This document shows, in pieces, positions 2-43,751 of a stretch of 64,000 bases of DNA. Every line of letters starts with the position of its first letter. Position 1 is the stretch's first letter. The stretch lies in contig CAWAOD010000013.1 of NCBI GenBank assembly GCA_963783575.1, positions 64,001 through 128,000 of the forward strand, read 5' to 3'. The position numbers and the translations under genes are program-made. Origin of the DNA: an uncultured Spirochaetota bacterium. Its GTDB lineage: Bacteria > Spirochaetota > Brevinematia > Brevinematales > JAOACQ01. Under the pieces are notes generated by a model. It worked only from the letters and a program-made list of their open reading frames with translations. It had not been told where the DNA came from and ran no database searches.

Positions 2-1048
2 ACGGATAAAGTTTCCGATGATATGATAACAGATATTGCATTGTCATATAAGAAATCGAAAAATCCCGTTGTTATAATCGGCGAAGATGTTTTTAAAAGT
101 ACCCTTTCGAAACCGGGATTTAAAGTTTTATCTGAAATTTTTCAAGGAAGGATATTTCCGCTTTTTACAATAAACAATATTCTCGGCGCTGTATCTTATG
201 GAATTTCACCTTATGCTGATAATAAATATTTAGCCGGGAAATGGAATGCAGAACTGCCGGCAGACAGGGGATTGAATATTTTCGAAATGCTTGATGCCTC
301 CAATAACGGCAGTATGAAATGTATGTATATAGTCGGTGAGGATTTGCTCGCTGATGCCGGGGATTATAGCAGAGTAAAAAAGTCTCTTGAAAATCTTGAA
401 TTCCTGGTCGTGCAGGATTTATTTATGACAGAAACCGCGAAATTGGCGGATGTCATTCTTCCCGCGGCCGGTTCTCTCGAGAAAAAAGGCACTTTTACAA
501 ATATGGAAGGAAAACGCCAGCATTTTATGCCCGTTATCGACCCTATCGGCGAATCGAAACCGGATTCGGAAATTTTTATGGAATTATCGGGAAGGTTGGG
601 AATTAAGCTTCCTTATGGCGATGTAAACGAAATAACCGAAGAAATTAAGGATATTGATTTATTTAAAAATAAAATTTTCATAACCGGAAATATATCCATT
701 CCTGAGGAAAACACCGGTGATAGTTTTCCCCTGTGGATAAAAGCGGACAATACCCGTCTGAAGTATCATTCCGGAAGCCTGCTTAAAAACTCGTATTTCT
801 TAGAGCGTGAAATGGAGCCTGCTGCCGTTCTGGTACATCCGGACCAGGCAAAGGCAAACCAGCTTAGAAATAACGAAAAAGTAAAAATTACTACAAAATA
901 CGGGGAAATATTAAGAAATGTCCTGATATCAAACGATATCCCGAAAGGAAGCATCGTTTTAAGAACAAATATCAGCGATTATTCCCATACCATGGTATTA
1001 CCGGCAGGGTTATTATGGACGCCGGGTAGATTGGAGAAATTATCATGA
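2..1048 (+). CDS. Molybdopterin-oxidoreductase-family (FdhF/NuoG-like) subunit, C-terminal part, 5'-truncated by the window edge; probably non-catalytic
   Basis: LEFLVVQDLFMTETAKLADVILPAA and EKKGTFTNMEG motifs plus a C-terminal Molydop_binding-like domain; frame open from position 2; PLFTINNILG replaces the FDH PLRGQNNVQG motif. Confidence 0.8.
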   Translation, partial: TDKVSDDMITDIALSYKKSKNPVVIIGEDVFKSTLSKPGFKVLSEIFQGRIFPLFTINNILGAVSYGISPYADNKYLAGKWNAELPADRGLNIFEMLDASNNGSMKCMYIVGEDLLADAGDYSRVKKSLENLEFLVVQDLFMTETAKLADVILPAAGSLEKKGTFTNMEGKRQHFMPVIDPIGESKPDSEIFMELSGRLGIKLPYGDVNEITEEIKDIDLFKNKIFITGNISIPEENTGDSFPLWIKADNTRLKYHSGSLLKNSYFLEREMEPAAVLVHPDQAKANQLRNNEKVKITTKYGEILRNVLISNDIPKGSIVLRTNISDYSHTMVLPAGLLWTPGRLEKLS

Positions 1049-2091
1049 ATAAAATAAAACTTATTGATAAAGGCAAACTTTCCGCCTGGATTGAAGGCAT
1101 CATAAAAAAATACAGGGTTTTCGCTCCTCAGAAAATCGGCGAAAATGAATATATTTTTAAGGACCTGGTTTCACCTGATAAAATCTCGCTTGATTATATC
1201 AACCCGGTTATTTCACCCATAAAAGATCTGCTTTTCCCGATGAATGAAAAATTGATAGATTACAAAAAAAAGGAAAACGGATGGGAAACAAAGACCGAAG
1301 AAATCAAAGAGAAAACCGTGCTTTTCGGAATGCGTTCATGTGATCTGTCGGCTTTAATATTCATGGATAAATTCTTCCTTGAAGGGTTTAAGGATAATTA
1401 TTACGCGGCAAGAAGGGAAAATCTTTTTACTGTAAATGTAAGCTGTCTTAATCCCGCGGAATACTGCTTCTGCGTCTGCGCGGATGCCGGACCATCTAAG
1501 GACGATGGTTTTGATGTTCAGCTAACCGATATCGGCGGTAAATACCTGGTCGAAATAGGTTCCGGAAAGGGCGAGGAACTTGTAAATATTGATTCTTCTT
1601 TATTTACAGAGGCATCCCCCGATGATCTTAAGAAAAAGCATGATTTGATTCTTGAAATAAGGAACAATAAATTCAAACTACCGACCACATATTTTTCCAA
1701 AGCGATCCGGCATGTAACAGCCGATGATATAAGCGAAAAGGAATGGAATAAGCTCGGGGCAAGGTGCATCGCCTGCGGAAGCTGTTCATACATCTGCCCG
1801 ACCTGTACCTGTTTTAATGTTATCGACATTGAGAAAAAACCCGGAGAGGGTTCGAGATACAGGACCTGGGATTCATGCATGTACGGCGGTTTTACCAGGG
1901 AAGTGTCGGGGCATAATCCCCGTCCGACTCAGAAGGAAAGGGTGAAAAGACGCTATTACCATAAGCTTAGCTATTATTACCTGAGGAAAATGGGAACACA
2001 TGGATGCGTGGGCTGCGGCAGGTGCGTTATATCCTGCCTGGGCAGCATTGATATGTTCGATGTCAGTAAAGATATCAGAAGGAACGGATAA
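1045..2091 (+). CDS. AsrA / sulfhydrogenase beta-like 4Fe-4S protein
   Basis: RSCD, CFC, CIACGSCSYICPTCTC, WDSC and CVGCGRCVISC motifs; ATGA overlap with upstream gene. Confidence 0.9.
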   Translation: MNKIKLIDKGKLSAWIEGIIKKYRVFAPQKIGENEYIFKDLVSPDKISLDYINPVISPIKDLLFPMNEKLIDYKKKENGWETKTEEIKEKTVLFGMRSCDLSALIFMDKFFLEGFKDNYYAARRENLFTVNVSCLNPAEYCFCVCADAGPSKDDGFDVQLTDIGGKYLVEIGSGKGEELVNIDSSLFTEASPDDLKKKHDLILEIRNNKFKLPTTYFSKAIRHVTADDISEKEWNKLGARCIACGSCSYICPTCTCFNVIDIEKKPGEGSRYRTWDSCMYGGFTREVSGHNPRPTQKERVKRRYYHKLSYYYLRKMGTHGCVGCGRCVISCLGSIDMFDVSKDIRRNG

Positions 2092-2919
2092 ATGGAAAAC
2101 ATATATTTATCGCAGGAAGCTGTAATCAGGGATATAAAACAGGAAACTTTCGACACAAAGACTTTTTTCCTTTCGTTCAGGGATAAAAATATTCAGAAAA
2201 ATTTTGAATACAAGCCGGGGCAGTTTATTGAAGCTTCCCTGTATGGATATGGTGAAGCTCCTTTCGGAATGGCCACATCCCCGACACGCAAAGATTATTT
2301 TATAACGACGATACGCTCGGTCGGTAAACTGACACAGGCCATCCATTCACTTAAAATCGGGGATACTATCGGCGTGAGGGGACCGTTTGGGAACAGTTTC
2401 CCATTTGAGGAAGTAAAAGGGAAAAATATTTTATTCATCGGGGGCGGCATCGGCCTTCCGCCTTTAAGGTCTCTCATACATTATATGATGGACAAACGTT
2501 CCGATTATAAAGATATTACGATACTCTACGGAGCAAGAACACCTAAAGACCTTGTTTATAAGGAAGAATTAAAGGAATGGGAAAACAGCAAAGATATTAG
2601 TTTTTATGTTACAGTAGATGCAGCCGATGGCGAATGGAAAGGAAACGTCGGAGTTGTTCCGCTTCTATTGAACAAAATAAAGCTTGATATTCCAAACACT
2701 GTGGCTTTTGTGTGCGGACCTCCTATTATGATAAAATTTGTTATCCAGGATCTTCTGAAATTGAATTTCGCCGAGGAAAATATTATTACAACCCTGGAAA
2801 GATATATGAAATGCGGAGTCGGTAAGTGCGGGCATTGCGCCATCGGATACAAATATGTCTGCATGGATGGGCCGGTTTTTAATTATAAACAGATAAAAAA
2901 CCTGCCGGAAAAGGCATAA
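2092..2919 (+). CDS. AsrB / sulfhydrogenase gamma-like FAD/NAD(P)-binding 2Fe-2S subunit
   Basis: PGQF, RGPFGN, GGGIGLPP, CGPP and MKCGVGKCGHC...C motifs. Confidence 0.9.
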   Translation: MENIYLSQEAVIRDIKQETFDTKTFFLSFRDKNIQKNFEYKPGQFIEASLYGYGEAPFGMATSPTRKDYFITTIRSVGKLTQAIHSLKIGDTIGVRGPFGNSFPFEEVKGKNILFIGGGIGLPPLRSLIHYMMDKRSDYKDITILYGARTPKDLVYKEELKEWENSKDISFYVTVDAADGEWKGNVGVVPLLLNKIKLDIPNTVAFVCGPPIMIKFVIQDLLKLNFAEENIITTLERYMKCGVGKCGHCAIGYKYVCMDGPVFNYKQIKNLPEKA

Positions 2920-2944
2920 TGATTATAAAATCAGGGATAAAAAA

Positions 2945-4966
2945 ATGATTGAATATTTAATTTACGCTGTAATCGCCGGGTTTATTCTTACCTGCTTTAC
3001 CGTAAGATTCAGGAAGCTTTGCGGGTATATAGCATTCTTTACCATATTATTAATAAGTATCGGCGTGTTCTATATTGTTTATCAGGTCTTCAGCACATCG
3101 TCGCCTGTAAAGATCGACGAACCTCTTATGATACTTCCGGTTATAGGGGCGCAGCTTGTTTTTAACATCGATAAAATGGGGGCTTTATTCCTATCGCTGA
3201 TCGCCGTAATCTCGCTGCTTGCTTCGCTTTATTCAATTGATTATATGGACAGCTACAAAGAAGAAAGCCTTTTAAGGTTCTATCCTTTTTTGATACTTTT
3301 TGTTCTCAGCATGATAGGGGTGGTTATTGTTTCCGACCTGTTTTTCTTTTTCGTATTCTGGGAGTTTATGACATTATCGTCATATTTTCTTGTTATTTTT
3401 GAAAAAAAAGACCCGGTAGTACTAAAAGCCGGGTTTAAATACTTTTTGATGACCCACATTGGAACAGCTTTAATGTTTATTGCAGCTTTCGTTCTTCAGT
3501 CCTATGCCGGTACATTCAGATTTGACGGCATTGAACAGGCCATTGGTTCAATGGCTGTAAAAGCCACATTCGGCCTGCATATTGTCCTGGCTTTGTTCTT
3601 TATCGGGTTTGCGACAAAATCGGGCGTTTACCCATTCGGAACATGGCTGCCGGATGCCCATCCCGCGGCTCCTTCCGGAATCTCCGCGATGCTGTCGGGA
3701 GTTATGATAAAAATGGGGATTTTCGGGATACTCCGCATTTTCTTGTATATACTCCCTGTTTCTGACTTTTCAGTGCTCTGGGGGATTATCATCGCTGTCT
3801 TTGGGACATTGTCAATTTTGATCGGCACATTTAACGCCCTTGTCCAGAAGGATTCTAAAAGACTGCTGGCTTTCCACAGCATCGGCCAGATCGGGTATGT
3901 TCTTCTGGCTGTCGGAATTGGTATAAGCTTTATGAAGGATAACCCGGCCATCGCAACGATAGCATTAATCGCAGGTTTATTCCATATGATAAACCATGCC
4001 TTCTTCAAGAGCCTTTTGTTTTTAAACGCCGGATCGATATTATTCAAAACCGGGATAAAAAACCTGAACAATCTTGGCGGATTATGGAACATCATTCCAC
4101 TTACGGCTGTGACAGCGCTTGTTGCCTCTCTTTCCATTTCAGGAATACCGCCGTTTAACGGATTTGTCAGCAAATGGCTTATCTATCAGGTATCCATCCT
4201 CGGGGGAATCAAGGTTCCTTTATTCGTATCATGCGGAGTCGTGGCGATTTTTTTATCGGCTATAACTATGGCTTCATTTATTAAGTTTTTCTCCACTTCA
4301 TTTCTCGGGGATTTACCATGTGACATTAAAGATCATATAACCGCAAAAAGAATGCCCGCGGGAATGAATATTTCACAAATAATCCTTGCGCTTATCTGCC
4401 TGGGGTTGGGTCTTGCGCCGTTGTTCCCGGTAAAACTTATTTATGACTCACTAGCCGGGTCAAAACTTGCCGATACTTTACCGCAATTCGGTTCAATATT
4501 CAACGGCAGCGCCGGCGGGATCGGGATCCTTATAGACGGTAAAGAAACCGGGGTATGGAAGCCTCTGGTAATAGTACTAATATTCCTGGGGCTGGTTCTT
4601 TTATCTTACTTAATTTCAAAACTTGGCGGCTCAAAAAAAAGGGTCGTACCGGTCTGGCTATGCGGAGAGGAATACGACAGGGAGCAGGTTCGGTACAGGG
4701 CTCATAGTTTTTATTTATCGCTGCAGCATCTTATTGAGGGGTGGTTTTTCCCCAAGATTTTGATACCGGGTAAAGAAAAACCGGAGCGAGTTTATAATTC
4801 AATGAATTTCGATAATATCGCGTTTTATCCTTTAGCCAGGTGGATAGTAAACCTCGCAGATAAAATAAAAAAGAGCCACAGCGGAATACCGCAAATCTAT
4901 ATGCTGTGGCAGGTTCTGGGTGTAATTATTGCGGTAACCCTTATAATCCTCGCTGGAGGTAAATAG
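2945..4966 (+). CDS. hyfB: Hydrogenase-4 component B / HycC-like antiporter-type membrane subunit
   Basis: Polytopic membrane protein; FWEFMT, WLPDAHPAAPS, KRLLAFHSIGQIG, GIPPFNGFVSKW. Confidence 0.85.
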   Translation: MIEYLIYAVIAGFILTCFTVRFRKLCGYIAFFTILLISIGVFYIVYQVFSTSSPVKIDEPLMILPVIGAQLVFNIDKMGALFLSLIAVISLLASLYSIDYMDSYKEESLLRFYPFLILFVLSMIGVVIVSDLFFFFVFWEFMTLSSYFLVIFEKKDPVVLKAGFKYFLMTHIGTALMFIAAFVLQSYAGTFRFDGIEQAIGSMAVKATFGLHIVLALFFIGFATKSGVYPFGTWLPDAHPAAPSGISAMLSGVMIKMGIFGILRIFLYILPVSDFSVLWGIIIAVFGTLSILIGTFNALVQKDSKRLLAFHSIGQIGYVLLAVGIGISFMKDNPAIATIALIAGLFHMINHAFFKSLLFLNAGSILFKTGIKNLNNLGGLWNIIPLTAVTALVASLSISGIPPFNGFVSKWLIYQVSILGGIKVPLFVSCGVVAIFLSAITMASFIKFFSTSFLGDLPCDIKDHITAKRMPAGMNISQIILALICLGLGLAPLFPVKLIYDSLAGSKLADTLPQFGSIFNGSAGGIGILIDGKETGVWKPLVIVLIFLGLVLLSYLISKLGGSKKRVVPVWLCGEEYDREQVRYRAHSFYLSLQHLIEGWFFPKILIPGKEKPERVYNSMNFDNIAFYPLARWIVNLADKIKKSHSGIPQIYMLWQVLGVIIAVTLIILAGGK

Positions 4967-4967
4967 T

Positions 4968-6659
4968 ATGAATGGAAATGAATTGATATCAAAATTAAAA
5001 AGCAAATTTAATGACAGCATAGTCAATGCGGTTGAAAAAACGCCTTCAAGGGTTTTTATTACTGTTCCAAAGAATAAAATCAAAGAAATTACAGGATATA
5101 TTTCAAAGGATATGAAAGCCCGGTTTCAGGTCAGCGTAGGGACCGACAGCAGGAATAAAAACGGGAATTTTCAGATTACGCATATTTTTTCACTGGATAA
5201 AGAAAAGCTTTACATTATTGTTCATGCCCTGGTTCATCCCGATGACCCGAATATAGACTCAATAGCGAATGATATTCCGGCGGCAAACTGGACCGAAAGG
5301 GAATTCAGGGATATGATCGGCGTCAACCCGGTTGGGCATCCTGACCCCAGAAGGCTTGTACTGGCTGATGATTGGCCGGATGATGTTTATCCTTTAAGGA
5401 AGGACTTCCCATACGACTGTAAAGTACCATCGGTGTCGCCCGGTTCTCCGGGACCGAGAATCGTAATGAAAGCGCCGCCCGAAGGGGCTTCGGTAATACC
5501 GATAGGCCCGTTTTACCCGGTGCTTGAGGAGCCTTCGCAGTGGAGAATTTTTGTCGAGGGTGAATCAATTGTCGGCTGCGATTACAGGGGATTTTACGTC
5601 CACAGGGGAATTGAAAAACTTGGAGACAGCGTACTGACATACAACCAGATTCCGTTTATCGCTGAAAGAATCTGCGGGATTTGCGGTTTCGTTCATTCCA
5701 GCTGCTACTGCCAGGCTGTTGAGAACGCGGCGGGAATTGAAATTCCGGAAAGATCGAAGTTTATAAGAAGCATTCTTCTTGAACTGGAAAGAATCCACAG
5801 CCATCTGTTGTGGCTCGGGATCGCCGGGCATATCATCGGCTTCGATACCGTTCTTATGCAAAGCTGGAGGATAAGGGAGCCTGTGATGTGGCTGACCGAA
5901 AGAATCACCGGGCATAGAAAAACTTATGGCATGAACCTCATCGGAGGTGTAAGGAGAGACATAACAAAAGAAATGTGCCAGGATATAACAAATGTTATAA
6001 ATAAAGTTGAAAAAGAATGGACTGCAGTGATTAACGCGATCGGAGGCGATACCCCGCTGTTTATGAGGCTCAGGAATGTCGGTGTGCTCAGCCATGAAAA
6101 CGCGCTTAAAACCTCTGTTCTGGGGCCGACGGCGAGAGGTTCCGGAGTGGATATAGACGCAAGGACGGATCACCCGTTCGCGGCTTATGAATATATCCCG
6201 GTCAACAGGATTGTTCATAATGAAGGCGATATAATGTCAAGGACTATGGTCAGGCTTGAAGAAACACTCGAATCAATAAGGATCATTAAAGAATGCATGA
6301 AGCTGATGCCGGAAGGCCCGATCATGGCGAAAGTTCCGGACACGATACCGGACGGACTTGAAGGCGTAAGCGTTGTCGAACCGCCCAGGGGCGAAGTGAT
6401 TCACTATATAATGACCGGGGGTGACAACCGTCCTTACAGGTGGCGTGTCAGGGCCCCTACATATTTTAACCTTCAGGCTGTTCCTATAATGATAGAAAAT
6501 GTTACAATCGCCGATGTCCCGATCACCCTTGGAAGCATTGACCCATGCTTTTCCTGCACCGAAAGGATGGAGGTCGTGGACGTTAAGAAAGGCGACATTA
6601 AAGTATATTCGCAGGATGACTTACTGGCGTTGTCAAGGAAGAAGTATGGTGATAAATGA
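4968..6659 (+). CDS. hycE: Group 4a [NiFe]-hydrogenase large subunit (NuoC+NuoD-like fusion, HycE/HyfG)
   Basis: N-terminal NuoC-like domain (ERE..DM.G, GHPDPRRL, YPLRKD); L1 ERICGICG and L2 DPCFSCTER with all four Cys; cleavable C-terminal tail after Arg. Confidence 0.92.
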   Translation: MNGNELISKLKSKFNDSIVNAVEKTPSRVFITVPKNKIKEITGYISKDMKARFQVSVGTDSRNKNGNFQITHIFSLDKEKLYIIVHALVHPDDPNIDSIANDIPAANWTEREFRDMIGVNPVGHPDPRRLVLADDWPDDVYPLRKDFPYDCKVPSVSPGSPGPRIVMKAPPEGASVIPIGPFYPVLEEPSQWRIFVEGESIVGCDYRGFYVHRGIEKLGDSVLTYNQIPFIAERICGICGFVHSSCYCQAVENAAGIEIPERSKFIRSILLELERIHSHLLWLGIAGHIIGFDTVLMQSWRIREPVMWLTERITGHRKTYGMNLIGGVRRDITKEMCQDITNVINKVEKEWTAVINAIGGDTPLFMRLRNVGVLSHENALKTSVLGPTARGSGVDIDARTDHPFAAYEYIPVNRIVHNEGDIMSRTMVRLEETLESIRIIKECMKLMPEGPIMAKVPDTIPDGLEGVSVVEPPRGEVIHYIMTGGDNRPYRWRVRAPTYFNLQAVPIMIENVTIADVPITLGSIDPCFSCTERMEVVDVKKGDIKVYSQDDLLALSRKKYGDK

Positions 6660-6670
6660 CAATTATGGGT

Positions 6671-6741
6671 CGAGCATCCTGCCTGGCCTGCCTACAACGG
6701 GATATCCGGCAGGTAGGCGGCAGACAGGTCATGCTTGCTCG
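6671..6741. repeat. GC-rich nested palindrome (REP-like CCTGCCT...AGGYAGG element)
   Basis: CGAGCA/TGCTCG, CCTGCCTG/CAGACAGG and GCCTGCCT/AGGTAGGC nested arms. Confidence 0.6.
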
Positions 6742-6753
6742 GGAGGAAAGTAA

Positions 6754-7653
6754 ATGGTTTGGTTAGCAATTATAAATGTTTTGCTTGTAATACTGCTTTC
6801 GCCGCTTTATGAAGGCATTATAAGAAAAGTGAAGGCTTTTGTCCATTCGAGAAAAGGCCCGCCGGTTTACCAACCTTACATTGACCTGTTAAAGCTTTTA
6901 GGTAAAGAGGATCTGCGGGTATCAGGCAATATCCTGATCGGCCTGGCTCCTGTGGTGTGTTTCGCAAGCGTGTTGATGGTTGCAATGCTGACTCCAATCG
7001 GAACAATAGTTTCTCCGCTGGGATTCGGCGGGGATGCCATTGTTATGATATATTTTATAGCTTTATCAGCTTTCGCTATTATGATCGGCGCGGCGGCAAC
7101 TGAAAACCCGTACGCCTTTGTCGGCTTAAACAGAAAGATGATGCTGTATCTTGTACTTGAAATTATAGTTGTAATAGCGATTCTCGCGGGAGTCATCAAA
7201 AGCGGTTCTTTCCAGATCTCGGATATTGTCAGGAGAGTTTTAAAAAACGGCATGTCTGTCTCGACCGTGCTTGCCGCGGCGGCGTTTTTCCTTGTAATCC
7301 AGGCTCAGCTCGCGAAACTGCCTTTTGATGTATCCGAAGCCGAGCAGGAATTGATGGAAGGTCCTTTTATAGAGGCTTCCGGCCCAAGGCTCGCCCTTTT
7401 TAAATGGAGCTTTTACGCGAAACAGATAATATATTCATCGCTGTTTCTGGAAATGTTCATCCCATGGCCGAAGACATACATTATACCGTTGGATATACTG
7501 ATAAACCTGGCTAAAGTATTGGCCGTGATGCTTCTGATAGGGGTCATTGACGTTGTAAATCCGAGGCTTCGTATAGACCAGGCTATAAAGTATTATACAG
7601 GAGTATCGATAGTAGCTTTGATCGGGCTTTCATTCGCGGTGATAGGAGCGTAA
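6754..7653 (+). CDS. hycD: HycD/HyfC (NuoH-like) membrane subunit
   Basis: RKGPP..QPY.DLLKL and KLPFDVSEAEQELMEG motifs; GGAGG RBS. Confidence 0.9.
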   Translation: MVWLAIINVLLVILLSPLYEGIIRKVKAFVHSRKGPPVYQPYIDLLKLLGKEDLRVSGNILIGLAPVVCFASVLMVAMLTPIGTIVSPLGFGGDAIVMIYFIALSAFAIMIGAAATENPYAFVGLNRKMMLYLVLEIIVVIAILAGVIKSGSFQISDIVRRVLKNGMSVSTVLAAAAFFLVIQAQLAKLPFDVSEAEQELMEGPFIEASGPRLALFKWSFYAKQIIYSSLFLEMFIPWPKTYIIPLDILINLAKVLAVMLLIGVIDVVNPRLRIDQAIKYYTGVSIVALIGLSFAVIGA

Positions 7654-7809
7654 ATTAGCGGCTAGATATTAGTCGCTATTCGTTAGCTATCTGATATAGT
7701 CAGTTTCTGTTTTTATTTATGTATAGTAGCGGAAAGCCAAATTGATTTGTAATCCTTCGTTCGGATAAGGATTATATAATGGTCAAGCGGCACGCTTGAG
7801 GAAAAGTTT

Positions 7810-8250
7810 ATGTTTTTAAGCAAGATTAAAGAAGCGATAATATGCTTCAAAGCCGGAAGGGTCACAATGCCCTACCCATTGGGCGCGGAAGGAAACCCTC
7901 CGAAGGAATGGTTCAGGGGAAGGGTCCATCTTGATCCAACTAAATGTATCGGCTGCGGCGGCTGTGCAAATGTTTGCCCACCGGGTTTGATAAAAATAAT
8001 CGATGTCGACGGCAAAAGGTTTATTGAAAGGGATCTTTTCCGCTGTATTTACTGCGGCAGGTGCGTTGAGGAATGCCCGGAAAAGGCCATCACAATGTCT
8101 GAGGATTATGAACTCGCAACCGATCATAAAGAAGATCTCTTAATCCGGCAGGAGATAGATATGGCGACCTGCCAGAGGTGCGGAAGATGTTTTGACCGGA
8201 ATTTAAAGAATCCGCTGGATAAAATGATGATAAAAGGCTTTAGAAGCTGA
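7810..8250 (+). CDS. hycF: HycF/HyfH (NuoI-like) 2x[4Fe-4S] subunit
   Basis: CIGCGGCANVCP, CIYCGRCVEECP and an extra CQRCG. Confidence 0.88.
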   Translation: MFLSKIKEAIICFKAGRVTMPYPLGAEGNPPKEWFRGRVHLDPTKCIGCGGCANVCPPGLIKIIDVDGKRFIERDLFRCIYCGRCVEECPEKAITMSEDYELATDHKEDLLIRQEIDMATCQRCGRCFDRNLKNPLDKMMIKGFRS

Positions 8251-8265
8251 TCCCGGAGGTTAAAG

Positions 8266-8931
8266 ATGGAACTTTCATATATAGTATCGCTGTTCTGCCT
8301 GTCTATGTTCATAACAACAATAGCGGTAATAGAAATAAGGAATTTAAAATACGCGGTTTACGCATATTGCCTGCAGGCAATTATTATGGCTGTTCTGTAT
8401 TTCTATCTTGCTTCTCATATAAATCCAAGATTTTTCGTCTGGTTTATTGAGGTTGTGGTTGTAAAAATTGTACTTATACCGATGTTTTTTTTGATATATA
8501 TAAGAAGAACTACCCAAATAGCTTTCAGACCTTTTATTGGCTATATCCCCTCGGTATTTCTGATGGCTTTTATAATAATAATCATGTTCTATATGATATA
8601 TACTAACATCAATTTTATAGCCCCAAGTGCCGAAGCCGTTCAGGACCCCGGAAGAACGCTTCTTTCCGTATCATTGACTGTTTTCACATTGGGATTGTAC
8701 GGGATTTTGACAAGACGCGACGCTATAAAAATGGTCTTAAGCCTCTGCGTGGTGGATAACGGCGTGCATTTATTCCTGGTAAGCACCGCCCTGTCAATGC
8801 CTGAAATAGCCGTCATCGGTATAACAACGGACGCGGTTATAGCCGTTTTACTGCTGCTTTACCTGGTAAGAGGAATATTCAATGAATTCGGGTCTGCCGA
8901 TACCAATGAACTGAAGAATCTAAGGTGGTAA
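8266..8931 (+). CDS. hyfE: HyfE-like (NuoK-related) membrane subunit
   Basis: About 7 TM helices, DNGVHL motif, operon position. Confidence 0.75.
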   Translation: MELSYIVSLFCLSMFITTIAVIEIRNLKYAVYAYCLQAIIMAVLYFYLASHINPRFFVWFIEVVVVKIVLIPMFFLIYIRRTTQIAFRPFIGYIPSVFLMAFIIIIMFYMIYTNINFIAPSAEAVQDPGRTLLSVSLTVFTLGLYGILTRRDAIKMVLSLCVVDNGVHLFLVSTALSMPEIAVIGITTDAVIAVLLLLYLVRGIFNEFGSADTNELKNLRW

Positions 8932-8933
8932 TT

Positions 8934-10475
8934 ATGCCTGAAGTTAATACTTTCTATTGTATTATATTATTTATAGTGCCTGCCGCAACGGCATTACTCA
9001 TTCTTATTCTTGGAAGATTCCGGATATTCAGGGAATGGCTGGCTTTAGCGGGTATGACTGCCACTTTTATAATTAGCGTATATATATTCCTTAATTCTCA
9101 AAGAACCATACAAAGCTATTTCAATAATAATCTCAGGATAGATGCTTTCAGCGGATTGATTATTGCTCTGATCAGTTTGATCGGACTGGCCGTTTTAGTT
9201 TATTCAGTAAAATATTTAAAAACCGAAAAAGAAAAAGGTATATTCAAGGAAAAAAAGCTGAAATCATTCTACTGGCAGTTTATGCTTCTCATAAGCGTTA
9301 TGCTGCTGCTTGCGACATCAAACAATATCGTTCTTTTATGGGTGGTGATAGAAGCGACTACCCTTGCCGCGACGATTCTCGTTTCATTCTACTGGAACAA
9401 AAACTCCCTTGAGGCGGGTTTTAAATTTGTTATGATTCTGACTGTCGGAATGTCAATAGCGCTTATCGGCTGTATTTTATTATATTCGGGAGTGGCCCAT
9501 AATGTTAAAGCCGGCGAAGACCCCCTGCAGATTACAACCATAATATCAGTCGTAAAATCTGGCATAATCCCGAAAAGCATATTGAGCCTGTCAGCGGCTT
9601 TTTTACTGGTTGGTTTCGGCACAAAAGCAGGGATCGCACCTTTTCATACCTGGATGCCCGATGCTTATGCCGAATCGCCGGTACCTGTCAGTTCCATTTT
9701 ATCCGGTGTTGTTGTTAATATGAGTATTTATGCCCTTATCAGGATTTTTTCGATATTTTATTCGGCTGTACCGGTTTTAAATATTTTTGTGATTGTTCTT
9801 GGGCTGTTCTCAATGCTTCTCGGTGTTTTAATGATGTTTGTCCAGGATGATATCAAAAGATTTCTGGCGTATTCTTCGGTCAGCCAGATCGGTTATATCA
9901 TATTAGGATTCGGTCTCGCAGGGTCACAGGCCCCGGCTATTGGAACAATGGTCAATAATGGGGCTTATCTCGGGATGTACGGCGCTATCTTTCATATTAT
10001 CAACCATGCCCTAATAAAGACGCTTTTATTTTTGAGCGCGGGCGCGGTAATTTACGCAACAGGAATACGCAGGATGAGCGAACTCGGAGGCCTTGGGAAA
10101 AAAATGCCAATAACCGCCGTCTGCTTTTTTATAGCAGGGTTATCCATTTCGGGGATTCCATTTTTGAACGGCTTTGCAAGTAAATTTATAATCTTCATGG
10201 CGGGAGCAAAAATTGATGGAATGATATGGACGACAGTCATAGCAATAATCTGCAGTATATTGACGCTTGCGAATATTATTATAATTCTTCATAAGATATT
10301 TATGGGAAATGTTTCAGAGAATTTAAATAATTATGAAGTAAAAGAAGTTCCTGCGTCACTATGGACAGTAATGGTTTTTTTATGTATGTTATGCATTTTA
10401 TTGGGTGTTTATCCTCAAATTATGAATCCGTTTCTGGATAAAGCCGCAAGTGTTATTTTATCGGTAATATATTGA
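8934..10475 (+). CDS. hyfF: HyfF-like antiporter-type membrane subunit
   Basis: IEATTLA, EAGFK, FGTKAGIAPFHTWMPDAY, KRFLAYSSV; start could be GTG at 8925. Confidence 0.82.
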   Translation: MPEVNTFYCIILFIVPAATALLILILGRFRIFREWLALAGMTATFIISVYIFLNSQRTIQSYFNNNLRIDAFSGLIIALISLIGLAVLVYSVKYLKTEKEKGIFKEKKLKSFYWQFMLLISVMLLLATSNNIVLLWVVIEATTLAATILVSFYWNKNSLEAGFKFVMILTVGMSIALIGCILLYSGVAHNVKAGEDPLQITTIISVVKSGIIPKSILSLSAAFLLVGFGTKAGIAPFHTWMPDAYAESPVPVSSILSGVVVNMSIYALIRIFSIFYSAVPVLNIFVIVLGLFSMLLGVLMMFVQDDIKRFLAYSSVSQIGYIILGFGLAGSQAPAIGTMVNNGAYLGMYGAIFHIINHALIKTLLFLSAGAVIYATGIRRMSELGGLGKKMPITAVCFFIAGLSISGIPFLNGFASKFIIFMAGAKIDGMIWTTVIAIICSILTLANIIIILHKIFMGNVSENLNNYEVKEVPASLWTVMVFLCMLCILLGVYPQIMNPFLDKAASVILSVIY

Positions 10476-10484
10476 GAGAGGAAA

Positions 10485-10973
10485 TTGATGTTTAAAAAAC
10501 TTTCGCATAAAGCATTCCCGAAATCGCTCTGGGTTTACCATGTCAACACCGGGGCATGCAACGGATGCGACATTGAAGTTATCGATACGCTGACGCCTTA
10601 CTATGACGCCGAAAGATTCGGAATCAAACTGGTGAGTTCTCCCAGGCATGCAGATGTCCTGCTTATTTCAGGCCCGATTACAAGGCAGATTTTACCGGCA
10701 TTTAAAAGGCTTTACGACGCTGTTCCATCCCCCAAGCTTGTTTTTGCCATAGGCGCTTGCGCTGCCGGGGGCGGGATCTGGAAGAATTCTTACAATGTTG
10801 TAGGCGGCGTGGATAATATAATAAAAGTAGATTATTACATCCCCGGATGTCCGCCCAGGCCGGAAGCAATTCTGCATGGAGTTGCCGTAGCACTCGGCCT
10901 TGTCCCAAAATCGGTAAAATCAGAAGAATATAAAGAAAAATCCCTTGATGAAATGTTCCCTCCGGAAGAATAA
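10485..10973 (+). CDS. hycG: [NiFe]-hydrogenase small subunit HycG/HyfI (NuoB-like)
   Basis: ACNGCDIE, DAERFG, SPRHAD, GACA, IPGCPPRP. Confidence 0.92.
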   Translation: MMFKKLSHKAFPKSLWVYHVNTGACNGCDIEVIDTLTPYYDAERFGIKLVSSPRHADVLLISGPITRQILPAFKRLYDAVPSPKLVFAIGACAAGGGIWKNSYNVVGGVDNIIKVDYYIPGCPPRPEAILHGVAVALGLVPKSVKSEEYKEKSLDEMFPPEE

Positions 10974-11111: not shown

Positions 11112-11318
11112 ATGACAAATGAATTTACAGCCTGCATCTGGAAAGAAGGAAATTGGTATATAGCTCAATGTATGGAAGTTGATATCGCGAGCCAGGGAGA
11201 ATCTTCCAAGGAAGCCGTTCTTAATTTAAAAGAAGCATTGGAACTATATTTTGAAGAACCTCATCCGACCTTATCCCCAATGATTAAAAAATTAAAAATT
11301 AATATCCATGCCGCTTAA
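11112..11318 (+). CDS. hicB: Short HicB-family antitoxin (no DNA-binding domain)
   Basis: WYIAQC..DIASQGES..EA..NLKEALELYFE. Confidence 0.88.
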   Translation: MTNEFTACIWKEGNWYIAQCMEVDIASQGESSKEAVLNLKEALELYFEEPHPTLSPMIKKLKINIHAA

Positions 11319-11529
11319 TCCGCAGCCTTATCGTGAAGTAAAACGGAAGCTTGAAACAGCCGGCTTTTATGAATATTCCCAAAAAGGAAGTCATGTAAAA
11401 TTAGTGAAAATAACCAGTGAAGGAACAAGAACCGCAATAATTCCAAAACATTCAGAAATTAGTGTCGGTACATTAAGAAGTATTCTGCGTCAGGCTGGTT
11501 TGACTATTGAAGAATTTGAATCTTTTTGA
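11308..11529 (+). CDS. hicA: HicA-family mRNA interferase toxin
   Basis: QKGSHVK, IPKH.EI..GTLRSILRQAGL. Confidence 0.9.
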   Translation: MPLNPQPYREVKRKLETAGFYEYSQKGSHVKLVKITSEGTRTAIIPKHSEISVGTLRSILRQAGLTIEEFESF

Positions 11530-11553
11530 CCACAAAATCAGGGTCATTAATAA

Positions 11554-12612
11554 TTGAATATCAGGAGTCAGAATCTGGATAGAACTGAAATCATCGATTT
11601 ATATAAAAACGGAAAATTCCCGGAATTAATCAGTCTTGCAAATAAGACATACCTGGAAAATTATGGAAATAAAGTATGGATCAGGGGTTTGATTGAATTT
11701 TCCAATTTTTGTAATATGAACTGCACTTATTGTGGTATCCGCATGGACAACCGCAAAATTAACCGTTACAGGCTCGAAGAAACGGAAATAATAAATATCG
11801 TACGGCAGGGTATGGAAGCCGGATTTAAAACATTCGTCCTTCAGAGCGGAGAGGACAATTTTTATACTATTAAAGTGCTATGCCGCCTTATTGAAAAAAT
11901 AAGGGATATTGCGTCCGGATCGATAGCAATTACACTAAGCTGCGGGTTGAAGACAAAATCTCAGTTTAAAGAACTGAAAAAAGCGGGCTGCAACCGTTAT
12001 CTGATGAGGTTTGAAACATCAGATGAAGCGCTTTTTTCGGGATTGAAAAACGGATTGTCGCTGAAAGACCGGTTAAAAGGACTTTATTATCTTAAAGAAC
12101 TGGGATTTGAGACAGGTTCCGGCTATATGGTAGGATTGCCAGGGGAAACCGGGGAAACCAGGATCAATAACGCTTTATTATGCGCCGATCTTGAGCTGGA
12201 TATGATCGGCATAGGGCCGTTCATTCCGCATCCGTATACGCCCCTGTATGATTCAGCAGTTCCTTGTATTGATGAGACTGTAAGGTCAACAGCGCTTTTA
12301 AGACTGCTTCTGCCAAAATCAAATATACCGGCGACAACTGCCGCCGGCAGCATCCATCCATCAGGAAGGGAAAAGATGCTTGAAGCGGGCGCGAACGTGC
12401 TTATGCCGAATATAACACCTGCGGAACACAAAAAGGACTATACCCTCTATCCGGGGAAAATTTGTATTGAAGAATCGGGGCTTCAATGCCTGGAATGCCT
12501 GGAAATAAGGGTTAGGAGCATCAATAAAACTATAGATATGGGGCGCGGTGATTCGAAAAACAAGGGGACTGATATTGGAAGAAAAGATTTATTATGGAGA
12601 GGAAACCGCTAA
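11554..12612 (+). CDS. hydE: [FeFe]-hydrogenase maturase HydE (radical SAM)
   Basis: RGLIEFSN, CNMNCTYC, IPATTA, GANVLMPN, YTLYPGK and C-x7-C-x2-C; TTG start. Confidence 0.9.
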   Translation: MNIRSQNLDRTEIIDLYKNGKFPELISLANKTYLENYGNKVWIRGLIEFSNFCNMNCTYCGIRMDNRKINRYRLEETEIINIVRQGMEAGFKTFVLQSGEDNFYTIKVLCRLIEKIRDIASGSIAITLSCGLKTKSQFKELKKAGCNRYLMRFETSDEALFSGLKNGLSLKDRLKGLYYLKELGFETGSGYMVGLPGETGETRINNALLCADLELDMIGIGPFIPHPYTPLYDSAVPCIDETVRSTALLRLLLPKSNIPATTAAGSIHPSGREKMLEAGANVLMPNITPAEHKKDYTLYPGKICIEESGLQCLECLEIRVRSINKTIDMGRGDSKNKGTDIGRKDLLWRGNR

Positions 12613-13924
12613 AGCGGTTCAAAATTTTGGGAGCGGTAATCTGCCGCCGGAACTTGTAATTGCTTACGCTTTAGTTAAAAAAGCCGTTCTAATAGCGGTT
12701 CAGGAATCAGAAAAAAAATACCCCGGCACAGTGTTTGAATGCCTGATTCTGGCAGTTGATGAAATTTGCGAGGGCAGGCATATGGAGCAATTTATCATTC
12801 CTCTCAAGCAGGGTGGTGCGGGTACAAGCATCAATATGAATATGAACGAGGTCATCGCAAACCTGGCGGGAGAAATTCACTTTTCTAAATACGGAAATAA
12901 AATCAGCCTCGACCCTATCGACGACATTAACCGCTACCAATCAACAAACGACACATTTCCGACGGCCGTAACTATTGTTGTTTATAACCGTCTGACAAGG
13001 CTTGAGAAATCCGTAATTGAGCTTCAGGAAACCCTGATAAAGAAGGAATCCGAATATTCTTTAATATTAATTACTGGAAGGACGGAAATGCAGTCTGCCC
13101 TGCCAATCACGCTTGGCCAGGTTTTTCCTCGTGGGCCGGGATGATCGAAAGGGATCGATGGAGGCTCAGTAAATTGAAGGATCGCGTGAGAACAATCGCT
13201 CTGGGCGGTACTGCCATAGGAACCTGCTTCAACGCCCCTCAAAAAACCGTTTTTTTATCCGAAAAAATCCTCCGGCAGATTACGGGTTTGCCTCTTTGCA
13301 GAAGCCAGAACCTTACAGACGAGGTTGCAGATCATGATAAGCTTTCGGAACTTGCAGGCGGGATAAAGCTCTGCGCTGAAAATATTTTTAAAATAACCGG
13401 GGATCTTCTGCTTTATTCTTCATCATTCATCGGCGAAATAAATCATCCTGATCTTCAGAAAGCTTCTACAATTATGCCTGCTAAGGTCAACCCGGTTATT
13501 CTTGAGTTTGTCAGGGGTCTGTCTGTCGAAGTACAGCATGAAATGCATGAAAATATCGGAATTTTGCAAAAACGGCCAGCTCCAGTTAAATCCTTATCTC
13601 CCGTTCATACTCGAGGCTTTTATAAATGCTTTTGATGATATGGAAAAAGCCATAAATTCTCTAATAGAAAAGTTTTTTAATAAAATGACAGTCAATGAAA
13701 AACAGGCCGGCCGGAACCTGGCACAGTCTCACGCTCTTCTTAACGCGTTATTGCCTGTCCTGGGATATCATCAAATAGAAAAGATATTTAAGACTGTTGA
13801 CGATAAAAATCCCAAAAGCATCAATGAATTAAAATTGATCATCGCGGAAATAACAGGACTGGACTTTAAAATACTTGATGAATACCTCGACCCTGTCCGT
13901 CTGACAACTTATAGGAAGGAATAA
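12575..13924 (+). CDS. aspA: Aspartate ammonia-lyase/fumarase-family lyase, split by two single-base frameshifts (~13122-13126 and ~13541-13543)
   Basis: QGGAGTSINMNMNEV, QSTNDTFPT, GRTEMQSALP, LGGTAIGT, STIMPAKVNP, GQLQLN spread over ORFs 12548-13144, 13141-13635 and 13502-13924. Confidence 0.8.
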
Positions 13925-13927
13925 AAA

Positions 13928-15145
13928 ATGCCTAACCAGAGCACACCTTTATCCGAACAGGTCCGGGTGGTTATTTTCGGGCTTCGAAACTCGGGAAAAT
14001 CCTCTTTTATAAATAATCTCTTTGAAAAAGATGTTTCCATTGTTTCGGAATCTCCAGGTACTACAACCGATCCGGTCACAAGGAGCATGGAAATACTGCC
14101 GGCCGGGCCGGTCGCTTTTACTGACACCGCCGGAATTGACGACACAGGAGAACTCGGAAGTCTTAGAATAAAAAAAAGCCTGGAAAAGCTTGATATCGCC
14201 GATCTGCCGGTATTTGTCTCTCGCGCCGACCGGCCTGTGTCGGACTTTGAAATCGAAATTGTCAATTCAATTTCACATAAAAAATCATTATTTATCGTTC
14301 TGACTTTCGGTGACATGATCGCTGATAAAGAAAAAATCGCATGGGCGGAAAAATATGATTATACTCTCATAGATAACATAAATAAAAAAGGTTTCGACGA
14401 CTTCAAAAAATTACTTATCAAAAAGATCAGTAAGACAGATTTTGAGATTACTCCGGTCGAAGGTCTTGTCAATGAAAACGACCTTGTTCTTCTTGTAACT
14501 CCAATTGACCTTGCCGCCCCGAAAGGCAGGCTCATCCTCCCGCAGGTTGAAACTATACGCGATCTTCTGGATAAAGACTGCGCGGTGCTTTTGGTTAAAG
14601 AGAGGGAATTGAAGTATTTCTATGATTCTTTAAAGATTAAACCGAAACTTGTGATCACCGACAGCCAGGCATTCAGCAAGGTCGCCGCCGATATTCCTGA
14701 GGATCAGCCGCTGACCTCATTCTCGATCCTTTTCGCAAGAAAAAAAGGCGATCTGGCAACGTTTGTGGAAGGAGCAAAACATTTAAAGAATGTCCCCGAG
14801 GGCGTTAAAATACTCATACTTGAATCATGCTCCCATCACCGCCAGGCTGACGATATAGGCACTGTCAAGATCCCAAGGCTTTTCCGCCAGCTCGTCCAGT
14901 CAAAAGCGGAGTTTGAATTTGCCAGGGAACTTCCGGAAGCCGGTAAATTGAAAGAATATTTCATGGTAATTAACTGCGCCGGCTGTATGGTTGGAAGGAA
15001 TCTCATTATGAGCCGTCTGCGAATTCTGAAAGAGAACAATGTGTTTGCCTGTAATTACGGCCTATTCCTCGCCTGGGTCAACGGCCTTTTACCGAGAGTA
15101 ATAGAACCTTTTCCTATGGAATGGGAGATTTATAATGAAGATTGA
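13928..15145 (+). CDS. hydF: [FeFe]-hydrogenase maturation GTPase HydF
   Basis: GLRNSGKSS, PGTTTDPV, DTAG, APKGRLILPQV, TDSQ, TSFSILFAR, CSHH...NCAGC. Confidence 0.93.
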   Translation: MPNQSTPLSEQVRVVIFGLRNSGKSSFINNLFEKDVSIVSESPGTTTDPVTRSMEILPAGPVAFTDTAGIDDTGELGSLRIKKSLEKLDIADLPVFVSRADRPVSDFEIEIVNSISHKKSLFIVLTFGDMIADKEKIAWAEKYDYTLIDNINKKGFDDFKKLLIKKISKTDFEITPVEGLVNENDLVLLVTPIDLAAPKGRLILPQVETIRDLLDKDCAVLLVKERELKYFYDSLKIKPKLVITDSQAFSKVAADIPEDQPLTSFSILFARKKGDLATFVEGAKHLKNVPEGVKILILESCSHHRQADDIGTVKIPRLFRQLVQSKAEFEFARELPEAGKLKEYFMVINCAGCMVGRNLIMSRLRILKENNVFACNYGLFLAWVNGLLPRVIEPFPMEWEIYNED

Positions 15146-37692: not shown

Positions 37693-38151
37693 TCACCCCA
37701 ATATTTCAATTAAAATATCCTTCAAATAATCCAATGTCTTTTCCACTTTCGGGCTGATTTGACCGTTGTTTATTGATTCGGGCTGGATGCCGATTAAAAA
37801 GATGTCGGCTTTTGTTTCAATGAATAAATAATCGGCTAAGACCTTTAATGGAATATTATGTGTGGTGTAAAGAGCAAGATCATTGAGCTTTTGCCTTTCG
37901 ATAATACTCATAGAACCGGGTTCTGCTCCCATATCAACCGCATCAACCATAATAACTGTATCCGGAGTCAACTCTTTAATTTTGCCTGTATAATTCTCAG
38001 GAGTTTCTTCACAATTAATAATATTTGCTTTAACCTTTCCTTCAATCTTTTCCGAAAGGGCCGGGCCGGCCCCGTCATCACCCCTCATTCTATTTCCTAT
38101 GCAGAGGATAACTGTTTTTGCTTTTAATCTCTTTTCTAACTGTTCAATCAT
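37693..38151 (-). CDS. hycI: Hydrogenase-3-type maturation endopeptidase
   Basis: GNRMRGDDGAGP, TPEN, VDAVDMG, TTHNIPL, GIQP. Confidence 0.88.
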   Translation of the reverse strand: MIEQLEKRLKAKTVILCIGNRMRGDDGAGPALSEKIEGKVKANIINCEETPENYTGKIKELTPDTVIMVDAVDMGAEPGSMSIIERQKLNDLALYTTHNIPLKVLADYLFIETKADIFLIGIQPESINNGQISPKVEKTLDYLKDILIEILG

Positions 38152-38632: not shown

Positions 38633-39118
38633 ATGTTTGAGAAAAAAGAAGCGGCGGTTCGGTTTACCGATGAGCTGATTCAATATATAGATAAATGGAA
38701 AAATAAAGAGGGGAATCTGATAATGATTCTCCACAGGGTTCAGGAAGAATATGGATATATTCCCAGGGAAGTCGCGCTGCAGATATCCAGGCAGCTTAAT
38801 GTTCCCCTTGCTAAAATTTATGGTGTTATTACTTTCTATCATTACTTCAGGCTTACCAAGCCCGGCAAGCACACAATCTCGGTATGTCTGGGTACAGCCT
38901 GCTATTTAAAAGACGGTGAAGATATTACAAAAGAGCTTGAATCCGATCTCGGGATCGGAGTTGGCGGAACAACCGAAGATAATGTTTTTTCGCTTCAGGC
39001 TGTTAGATGTGTCGGATGCTGCGGACTTGCGCCGGTTGTGGTAATCGATAACGAAGTATTCGGCAGGCTAAAAAAAGACGATCTGCCCCAGCTTCTTTCT
39101 AAATACAGAACAAAATAA
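38633..39118 (+). CDS. hndA: NuoE-like 2Fe-2S subunit of multimeric [FeFe]-hydrogenase (HndA/HydC)
   Basis: VCLGTAC, RCVGCCGLAP. Confidence 0.9.
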   Translation: MFEKKEAAVRFTDELIQYIDKWKNKEGNLIMILHRVQEEYGYIPREVALQISRQLNVPLAKIYGVITFYHYFRLTKPGKHTISVCLGTACYLKDGEDITKELESDLGIGVGGTTEDNVFSLQAVRCVGCCGLAPVVVIDNEVFGRLKKDDLPQLLSKYRTK

Positions 39119-39591
39119 TGTTTGGAAGAATTTCGGAAATAATATATAAACTAATTAATAATTCGATAGAATCAAAAGCTTCATTGATAATTCTGGATTA
39201 TATTGAAATAAATAGAAAAGAGCTTAAAATTTTTATTTTCGATAACCGGATAATTGATGAGACAAGTAAAAACGATGATGGTCTTCAGATCAAAAAAGAA
39301 TGCGATACATTGGCAGTAAAATTAGAGATTGAGGCGGGACAGAAGGAAGGAAATTCGATATATCTTGAACTGAATTTATTAAAACCGGAAAATCCTTCCG
39401 AATTATTTACGAAAATCATGACGATAAAAGGAAATTTAGAATTGGTAATCAATCGTATAAAAGATAAAAATAAATATTCTTTAATAAGAAGTGAAATTAT
39501 TGCGGAAGCAGGTAGTTCACTGGAAAATATTGATGAATCATCAATAAAAAAATATATTATAGAATTGGAGAAATTATTATGGGAAAAATGA
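39118..39591 (+). CDS. Degenerate HATPase_c-like protein
   Basis: N-box-like LINNSIE and operon position; DxGxG and G2 boxes missing. Confidence 0.5.
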   Translation: MFGRISEIIYKLINNSIESKASLIILDYIEINRKELKIFIFDNRIIDETSKNDDGLQIKKECDTLAVKLEIEAGQKEGNSIYLELNLLKPENPSELFTKIMTIKGNLELVINRIKDKNKYSLIRSEIIAEAGSSLENIDESSIKKYIIELEKLLWEK

Positions 39592-40002
39592 ATTTGAAAG
39601 GCCTTCAAAGTTTAAGAGAAAATTTGAAAAATGATTTTGAAAAAAAGGTCAATGAAAATAAAGAAATAACAATACTGGTAGGAATGGGAACCTGCGGAAT
39701 AGCTGCTGGTGCTAAAGAAACCATGCTCGACTTTTACAGATCAAATTGAAAAAATGGGGATGAAAAATGTAAAAATCAAACCGACCGGGTGCATGGGTTC
39801 ATGCTACGTGGAACCCACCGTAGAGGTTATTGTGCCGGGTATGCCGCAAATATTATACGGCAAGGTTAATCCCGAGACAGCGAAAAAAATTATGGAACAG
39901 CATATACTTCAAAAACAGCTTGTAAACGATCATATCTATGATAAACCGGCGATTGATATAATAAATCCGGCAACGCCGGTAAAGTTAAAACAGGATAAAT
40001 AA
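39579..40002 (+). CDS. hndB: Thioredoxin-like 2Fe-2S subunit (HndB/HydD), one frameshift at ~39732-39735
   Basis: VGMGTCGIAAGA in the first frame, TGCMGSCYVEP in the second. Confidence 0.85.
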
Positions 40003-40070
40003 TTTTATGAATAAAGATAGCTTCGTTATTATCATCATGTTCAACCGTTCGAAGGTCTTCAGAGGAGGAA

Positions 40071-41861: not shown

Positions 41862-41872
41862 GGAGGAAAATA

Positions 41873-43633: not shown

Positions 43634-43751
43634 ACAGGGAATATTTTGACCAAACCTGTAATGTCAATTAAAATAATTAAACTTTGTTTGGGTTTGATTT
43701 ACTTTATAGTAACTATATTTTTAAGATCTTAATAAAACAGGTTTAGTTAAA

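Follow-up and report, generated by a model that had tools for sequence, protein, structure and literature searches.

What supplies electrons to a membrane-bound [NiFe]-hydrogenase whose formate dehydrogenase (Fdh)-like subunit no longer carries the residues of a formate enzyme? This question is raised by a ten-gene operon at positions 2..10973 of a 64,000-nucleotide stretch of DNA from an uncultured Spirochaetota bacterium (the window; contig C13:64001-128000 of the host genome, here called G000). On balance, the evidence favours one membrane-bound group 4b-type [NiFe]-hydrogenase that would act as a reversible NAD(P)H:H+ oxidoreductase: all parts of such a complex are present with their ligands, as read from the sequence, and no other partner for its flavin module was found in the host. 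The arrangement is not new: operons of this type were described in silico in 2019 (PMC6349859) and 2026 (PMC13582414), and the window copy is a further member. It should be noted that G000 is 89.85% complete, so that genes missing from it are reported here as not found rather than as absent.

Organization of the operon

The operon was confirmed as ten open reading frames (ORFs), all on the + strand, in the order Fdh-like, asrA-like, asrB-like, hyfB, hycE, hycD, hycF, hyfE, hyfF and hycG. Family scans back the labels of all ten proteins, among which only the HycG-like one passes an NCBIfam curated cut-off. The first gene, of which the window holds the 3' part (2..1048), starts at C13:63324, 677 bases upstream of the window, and the gene preceding it is a short ORF on the opposite strand; the Fdh-like gene is therefore the first of the operon and nothing further upstream belongs to it. 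The possibility that AsrA and AsrB form part of an upstream soluble complex was rejected, since nothing co-directional lies upstream and no partners were found in G000.

The junction gaps are, in operon order, -4, 0, 25, 1, 94, 156, 15, -7 and 9 bp. The claim of tight coupling thus holds for seven of the nine junctions (-7 to 25 bp) and fails for hycE-hycD (94 bp) and hycD-hycF (156 bp). A scan for promoters and terminators remained near the levels of shuffled sequence (46 vs 36.1 +/- 6.4 and 14 vs 13.2 +/- 3.7, respectively). Neither hycB/hyfA nor hyfD nor hycI lies within the operon, as judged from the ORF list of 2..10973 and the upstream contig.

The hydrogenase core and its class

The large subunit HycE (4968..6659) is of the fused NuoCD type, and both of its predicted Ni-binding motifs, L1 and L2, are indeed intact (RICGICGFVH with C236/C239, and DPCFSCTER with C527/C530). 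It ends in a cleavable C-terminal extension of 30 residues; its best solved relative is E. coli HycE, and its identity to E. coli HycE/HyfG is 40%. NuoB-, NuoI- and NuoH-type subunits and antiporter-like subunits are all encoded in the same cluster. The small subunit HycG (NuoB-type, 10485..10973; PF01058) has four cysteines (25, 28, 92 and 122). HycF (NuoI-type with 2x[4Fe-4S], 7810..8250) counts 146 aa, compared to 180 in E. coli, and shows an extra conserved CxxCxxC at 121-127 that, speculatively, could hold a further cluster at the interface with AsrA. The membrane arm consists of HycD/HyfC (NuoH-type, 6754..7653; PF00146), HyfE (NuoK-type, 8266..8931; NF008556, PF00420) and the antiporter-like HyfB (2945..4966; 673 aa) and HyfF (8925..10475; 516 aa), which both keep the charged residues conserved in such subunits. 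At the position in transmembrane helix 8, HyfF has Asn, as does E. coli HyfF, where relatives have Lys.

The hydrogenase had been assigned to group 4a, a label that is not supported and should be dropped. A clade of the window HycE with E. coli HycE and HyfG was rejected by the approximately unbiased (AU) test (p=0.00127; 18 rows with two 4a references), as was a clade with two archaeal relatives alone (AU p=0.0045; same 18-row tree). The large subunits linked to asrAB form one group (support 97/88 in a 38-row tree and 83/91 in the 18-row tree), with that of locus L021 outside. Moreover, an exact 10-residue stretch of HycE occurs in 8 rows of the supplement of Takano et al. (PMC13582414), and the 7 of these that were listed are all HydDB group 4b. 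The window HycE is thus likely a group 4b enzyme, in a group that the same authors call paraphyletic. As for HycB/HyfA, the best HycB match in G000 is 31% identical and lies on C11 beside glutamate-synthase-like genes (ORFs judged by reading).

The Fdh-like subunit

The AlphaFold model of the Fdh-like subunit (574 aa; pLDDT 89.8) finds its best Foldseek match in FdhH 1fdi (TMq 0.88), and compared to FdhF the protein has five deletions of at least 8 residues each. Its N-terminus carries CxxCxxxC...C, and the [4Fe-4S] ligands C8/C11/C15/C43 are kept. Sec140/His141 of FdhF align to His132/Tyr133 and Arg333 to Phe, so that the subunit is degenerate, as had been predicted. The same was observed in an alignment of 19 sequences with an N-terminus (the window's and 18 from syntenic loci): Cys in the Sec140 column and Arg333 are found in 0/19, while the four cluster cysteines are kept in 19, 19, 19 and 18 of the 19. 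A hidden selenocysteine, in this gene or in hycE, was considered and rejected, both frames being open under table 11.

The Fdh-like subunit is the sole PF00384 (molybdopterin-oxidoreductase family) protein in G000. MoaC gave no match in this genome, and neither did tblastn searches with E. coli moaB, moaC, moaE, moeA, modA, pflB and focA (mobA and fdhD were not queried); moaA gave a weak match only, and the controls uvrB and nth matched. Given that the catalytic residues are gone and that no molybdenum cofactor (Moco) pathway or pyruvate formate-lyase (PFL) was found, formate input is unlikely in this host. We infer that the subunit resembles the C-terminal domain of complex I NuoG in being a scaffold without the cofactor; it would carry one [4Fe-4S] cluster and would not be a formate enzyme. 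When the protein was searched against 251 genomes of the phylum at E<=1e-95, a threshold blind to relatives of 25-30% identity, only G000 was recovered.

The retention of the Fdh-like gene and of its cluster ligands across relatives favours the main rival explanation, a three-way node. Here, reduced ferredoxin or another low-potential donor would deliver electrons to the [4Fe-4S] cluster of the Fdh-like subunit, to be split between H2 evolution with ion pumping and the reduction of NAD(P)+. A published AlphaFold model is three-branched, and its authors propose bifurcation or confurcation with an unidentified substrate (PMC13582414). We nevertheless consider such a node unlikely, though it deserves serious weight. 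The equivalent cluster of complex I, N7, is described as an off-path relic (PMC9474812). Since no Moco pathway was found in the host, a Mo-dependent third substrate is improbable here, and MoaC was likewise not found in two of the four other operon-bearing genomes searched, whose completeness is not stated.

The flavin module and its partner

AsrA (1045..2091; 348 aa with 16 Cys, including the invariant ones) is an Fe-S subunit of the AsrA/sulfhydrogenase-beta/FlxB type (NF040833 E 1e-60, below cut-off). AsrB (2092..2919; 275 aa; PF00970, PF00175, PF10418) is the corresponding AsrB/sulfhydrogenase-gamma/FlxA-type subunit for FAD, NAD(P) and [2Fe-2S]. Both score below their TIGR cut-offs, and their best matches among solved structures are the beta and gamma subunits of P. 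furiosus sulfhydrogenase I (PDB 9NEZ; 9nez_B E 2e-53 and 9nez_C E 2e-63, respectively).

AsrA is single-copy in G000, and we looked there for other proteins that it might serve. The siroheme subunit AsrC (TIGR02912), the group 3b alpha and delta subunits (queried with those of a relative) and FlxC and FlxD gave no match in G000; HdrA, HdrB and HdrC gave weak partial matches elsewhere in the genome only, that of HdrA spanning 69 residues. The lack of asrC and of group 3b subunits noted for the window thus extends to the genome as far as searched. Given that no Moco pathway, PFL, AsrC, group 3b or Flx-Hdr partner was found, the flavin module most likely feeds the window hydrogenase, which upholds the proposal that it stands in for the formate input. 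A complex prediction of the Fdh-like subunit (1-450) and AsrA (1-346) with HycF scored 0.02 with an uncertain partner fold and counts neither way.

AsrB belongs to the PyrK/FNR-like family, a point against the three-way node, as this family is not known to provide bifurcating flavin sites. AsrB has an Asp at the position where NAD-specific PyrK has one, and NADH is on this weak indication somewhat likelier than NADPH as substrate. In a tree of AsrB, in which 11 rows are labelled Flx (2 loci of these Pfam-checked), the hyf-linked, Flx-type and 3b-type rows are intermixed at weak nodes, and the tree points to no one origin of the module.

Conservation and origin of the operon

If the ten genes make one enzyme, their association should be found elsewhere, and the synteny is indeed conserved. 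A metagenome scan with AsrB returned 198 relatives, the best 80 of which were kept for reading of their loci. Twelve of these 80 hold a full hyf-type hydrogenase, a further 13 extend as far as an antiporter gene and 6 as far as hycI before their contigs stop; the others comprise 2 group 3b loci, 33 other contexts and 14 too short to judge. Eight of the other contexts were listed, 7 of them being Hdr-Flx-like by reading, with two (L059 and L086) checked against Pfam. The Fdh-like gene is present in 17 of the 19 hyf-type loci, among 31, that have at least 2 kb upstream. Recurrence in unrelated contigs places this arrangement far beyond chance.

The usual order in relatives is Fdh-like, asrA, asrB, hycI, hyfD-like, hyfB, hycE, hycD, hycF, hyfE, hyfF and hycG, with hycI inside the operon in 11 of the 12 full loci. 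The window copy has no hycI in its operon, but a HycI protease (PF01750) is encoded on the - strand at 37693..38151, ~27 kb downstream. It is 59% identical to the HycI adjoining the closest operon relative, L038, and its next matches are likewise operon HycIs; it is probably the operon's own displaced protease.

Among 13 genome loci found with HycE, asrAB lies in the cluster at three (L011, L012 and L021). L012:5486-15059 is rearranged (Fdh-like, asrA, asrB, hycF, hycE, hycG and hycD, with one antiporter match). At L021:1874-13576, asrAB is joined to a Mrp-type hydrogenase of another branch of the tree, which suggests that the module was attached more than once.

No close HycE was found among 40 relatives of the host. 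A homologue of AsrA (~30% identity) is present in 13 of these 40, and those that were read sit in group 3b operons, from which the window operon is therefore separate. The GC content of the operon is 42.3% compared to 37.6% for the contig, and its mean GC at third codon positions (GC3) is 0.449 compared to 0.385 (standard deviation 0.067), a mild shift. Since no close HycE was found and the composition is mildly shifted, the operon was probably acquired horizontally.

These two observations, together with the loss of hyfD and with maturation genes that were not found (see below), would also suit a horizontally acquired and partly decayed passenger that is never loaded with Ni and Fe in this host. 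However, all ten ORFs are intact with conserved ligands, and the host still has the matching HycI as well as HypA and HypB; we consider a passenger scarcely probable.

Maturation of the NiFe site

How the NiFe site would be built in this host deserves a closer examination. The genes hypA and hypB lie at C12:282-1341, whereas HypD, HypE and full-length HypF were not found in G000. HypC is present in G000 only as a fusion (C12:1338-2645), in which a HypC domain starting with Met-Cys is joined to a radical-SAM domain. Among solved structures, the latter is closest to HydE (model pLDDT 91; root-mean-square deviation to HydE 1.6 A). The gene hydG lies convergently beside the fusion, and hypA, hypB, the fusion and hydG together span C12:282-4054, outside the window. 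The fusion measures 433-435 aa.

Moreover, this pattern extends beyond the host. HypD, HypE or full HypF was found in 0 of 35 genomes of the order, and the fusion in 13 of them, all with HydG and HydF. HydG is missing from the six genomes of the sister family group, which carry HypD together with plain HypC. Across the phylum, 83 of 251 genomes have a HypC match; HypD accompanies ordinary HypC in 68/68 and the fusion in 0/15. The two fusion genomes outside the class were confirmed as such, both with HydG, and fusion homologues of 59-69% identity carry names from Saganbacteria, Margulisbacteria and Omnitrophota. The fusion is also the last gene, after hycI, of a group 3b operon in G012, G013, G015, G017 and G063; both Ni motifs are preserved in each of the four that were examined. 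Since HypD, HypE and full HypF are likewise missing from relatives whose group 3b and group 4 NiFe enzymes are intact, a replacement route is indicated rather than the decay expected of a passenger.

HydG makes Fe(CN)(CO)2(cysteinate), which is the substrate of HydE (PMC8855341). Because HypD and the fusion are mutually exclusive, the distribution suggests a HypDEF-independent radical-SAM route to the iron of the NiFe site. Three points weigh against this route: 13 of the 15 fusion genomes belong to one order; all of these 13 have the maturases of [FeFe]-hydrogenases, so that the presence of HydG needs no role in NiFe maturation; and the CO/CN ratio of the HydG product is wrong for a canonical NiFe site. 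Among the titles and abstract openings searched, subscription journals being outside this coverage, no published description of a HypC-radical SAM fusion was found.

A general dependence of the operon on the fusion was rejected, as the five genomes behind L011, L012, L016, L021 and L018 all have short HypC and HypD. A ~530-aa protein with only a degenerate C-terminal half of HypF (C9:460331-461944) occurs in 23 genomes of the order with or without HypC, and was rejected as maturase because it is also present in genomes without HypC. In G065, C82:5831-7237 holds HypC and HypD in one 483-aa open frame, possibly a HypC-HypD fusion.

Proposed mechanism and energetics

In the reading that we prefer, AsrB (FAD, [2Fe-2S]) would exchange hydride with NAD(P)H, and the [4Fe-4S] clusters of AsrA would replace HycB, which in formate hydrogenlyase (FHL) bridges FdhF and HycF (PMC9474812). 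From AsrA, electrons would travel through HycF and HycG to the NiFe site of HycE, and ion movement would be linked to turnover by HycD, HyfE, HyfB and HyfF. Assembly of the NiFe site in this host would have to do without HypD, HypE and HypF, and would probably proceed by way of HypA/HypB, the HypC-HydE-like fusion, HydG and the displaced HycI.

In group 4 enzymes, H2 production is described as creating the gradient (PMC6349859; HydDB table). With the same polarity, the complex would work near equilibrium. At an NADH/NAD+ ratio of 1, NADH -> H2 amounts to +18 kJ/mol at 1 bar, ~0 at 100 Pa, -4.7 kJ/mol at 10 Pa and -10.4 at 1 Pa. It would thus run from NAD(P)H to H2 with at most ~1 ion pumped out at H2 of ~10 Pa or less or, in the alternative direction, ion influx would drive the reduction of NAD(P)+ with trace H2. 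If the enzyme is of this kind, the chance that NAD(P)H to H2 at low H2 is the preferred direction is close to even, or slightly below.

Both energetic modes that had been put forward for this locus, NAD(P)H to H2 driven by the gradient and H2 to NAD(P)H with ions pumped out, invert this polarity. At high H2 such an inverted coupling would be thermodynamically tidy (+18 kJ/mol at 1 bar, equivalent to ~1.25 ions), and an outlet for NADH by reverse electron transport would be useful where a complete Rnf was not found, with only RnfC- and RnfD-like matches in G000. It nevertheless runs counter to the direction described for group 4 enzymes in the sources just cited, and the membrane subunits keep their usual charged residues with no sign of a reversed module. 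We regard it as very improbable.

Several points weigh against the NAD(P)H-linked reading itself, and one of them is energetic. An ion costs ~14.5 kJ at 150 mV, more than NADH -> H2 yields at 1-10 Pa; pumping could therefore reach at most between a fraction of an ion and one ion per H2, at very low H2, and so small a yield does not sit easily with tight coupling through two antiporter-like subunits. The three-way node gains here, as NAD(P)H alone provides too little energy to pump and ferredoxin entry would relieve this limit. The hyfD-like gene, present in 12/12 full loci, is missing from the window copy. Several of the syntenic loci are near-identical, so that their counts overstate independence. 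Among the Fdh-like proteins, the homologue L051 has a Cys one column off the Sec position, and 13 of the 19 have an Arg two columns off Arg333. The Asp of AsrB is present also in the group 3b-linked and Flx homologues aligned, and hence does not settle NAD versus NADP. Finally, the enzyme may fail to mature, given that the searches of G000 found no canonical HypD or HypE and no full HypF, and the incompleteness of G000 applies to every gene not found in it.

A bolder proposal takes the NAD(P)H-linked reading further. In this proposal, sulfhydrogenase/Flx parts and a dead Fdh came together independently to form an ion-coupled NADH:H+ oxidoreductase that resembles complex I, and the NiFe site of the complex is made without HypD/E/F in this lineage. 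HydG would make Fe(CO)x(CN)y from tyrosine and the HypC-HydE-like fusion would tailor and deliver it, the ligand set possibly not being Fe(CN)2CO. Taken as a whole, this proposal is tentative and rather doubtful.

Other features of the window and the genome

Directly after the operon, at 11554-15145 of the window, lie HydE (TIGR03956) and HydF (TIGR03918), both over cut-off, with an aspartase-like gene (label by reading) split over three ORFs between them (12548-13924). Two short ORFs at ~11112-11530 resemble, by reading, a HicB/HicA-type antitoxin-toxin pair. A multi-subunit [FeFe]-hydrogenase cluster occupies 38633-46652, with a catalytic subunit (41873-43633) confirmed by Pfam and a NfnAB-like pair (label by reading; 44372-46652) after the hydrogenase subunits.

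Elsewhere in G000, a further group 4 [NiFe]-hydrogenase whose motifs are intact is encoded at C14:382366-392261, with a hycI of its own and three antiporter-like subunits; it adjoins V-type ATPase genes and is conserved in relatives of the family. An Ehr-type complex whose large subunit has no Ni motifs lies at C18:144333-153632. RnfC- and RnfD-like genes are found at C9:434536-436930 with no other Rnf genes adjoining, and searches of G000 with rsxA and rsxE found nothing. The contigs C7 and C17 have GC contents of 52% and 49%, compared to ~37% elsewhere, and are possibly contamination or mobile DNA.

Comparison with known systems and significance

The closest counterparts are the group 4b clusters of Takano et al. 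(2026), who report that about half of the Fdh subunits encoded there have no Mo-ligating Cys/Sec and co-occur with SHI-beta/gamma homologues, and who assembled such a complex with AlphaFold 3 (PMC13582414). The window operon matches these clusters in its set of subunits and in having lost the Mo ligand, and it has HyfE-like, HyfC-like and multiple antiporter subunits as those clusters do. By comparison with them, the window copy is Cys-type and has no separate HycB-type ferredoxin and no protease within the operon. It has two antiporter-like subunits where close relatives have three. Its host differs as well, with no Moco pathway or HypDEF found, whereas hypABCDEF (one missing allowed) is reported for ~80-86% of genomes in PMC13582414.

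The account of Saganbacteria RX5A by Matheus Carnevali et al. (2019; PMC6349859) includes an 'enigmatic' group 4 hydrogenase with cooF, asrA and asrB. Antiporter-like subunits are common to that cluster and the window operon, as are a molybdopterin-type protein that could not be classified, with a single [4Fe-4S] domain, and asrA/asrB as a proposed oxidoreductase module. Unlike the window operon, the Saganbacteria cluster has a CooF-like gene; the authors compared it to Mbh, without naming an electron donor.

E. coli FHL-1/FHL-2 (PDB 7Z0S/7Z0T; Hyf) have homologues of HycE, HycG, HycF, HycD and HyfB/E/F that are 25-49% identical, and share the fused NuoCD-type large subunit with a cleavable tail. 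In contrast to FHL, the window operon has no active Fdh and no HycB/HyfA and adds an FAD/NAD(P) module, its large subunit does not group with HycE/HyfG, and its HycF is without the second half of the Cys quartet. P. furiosus sulfhydrogenase I beta/gamma, AsrAB and FlxA/FlxB are the same two-subunit flavin/Fe-S diaphorase module; there it serves soluble enzymes, whereas in the window it sits on a membrane arm. With complex I the window complex shares a flavin input for NAD(H), a cofactor-less domain of FdhF fold (the C-terminus of NuoG, by fold matches), the NuoBCDI core, NuoH and antiporter-like subunits. Its input is, however, of the AsrAB and not the NuoEF type, and H+ at a NiFe site would take the place of quinone as acceptor; the window complex is an assembly parallel to complex I and not a member. 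No characterised NAD(P)H-linked group 4 hydrogenase was found in the literature searched.

If our reading is correct, the operon would let anaerobes couple their pyridine nucleotide pool directly to H2 at the membrane, and would offer a living parallel to a possible assembly of complex I. As a member of its type in a host where no Moco pathway was found, it argues against a Mo-dependent third substrate. The window copy is a minimal ten-gene version suited to expression, and poses a clean test of the polarity of coupling at near-zero driving force. Moreover, the apparent absence of HypDEF from the host, together with the strict mutual exclusion of HypD and the HypC-HydE-like fusion, makes it directly testable whether radical-SAM chemistry can build a NiFe site.

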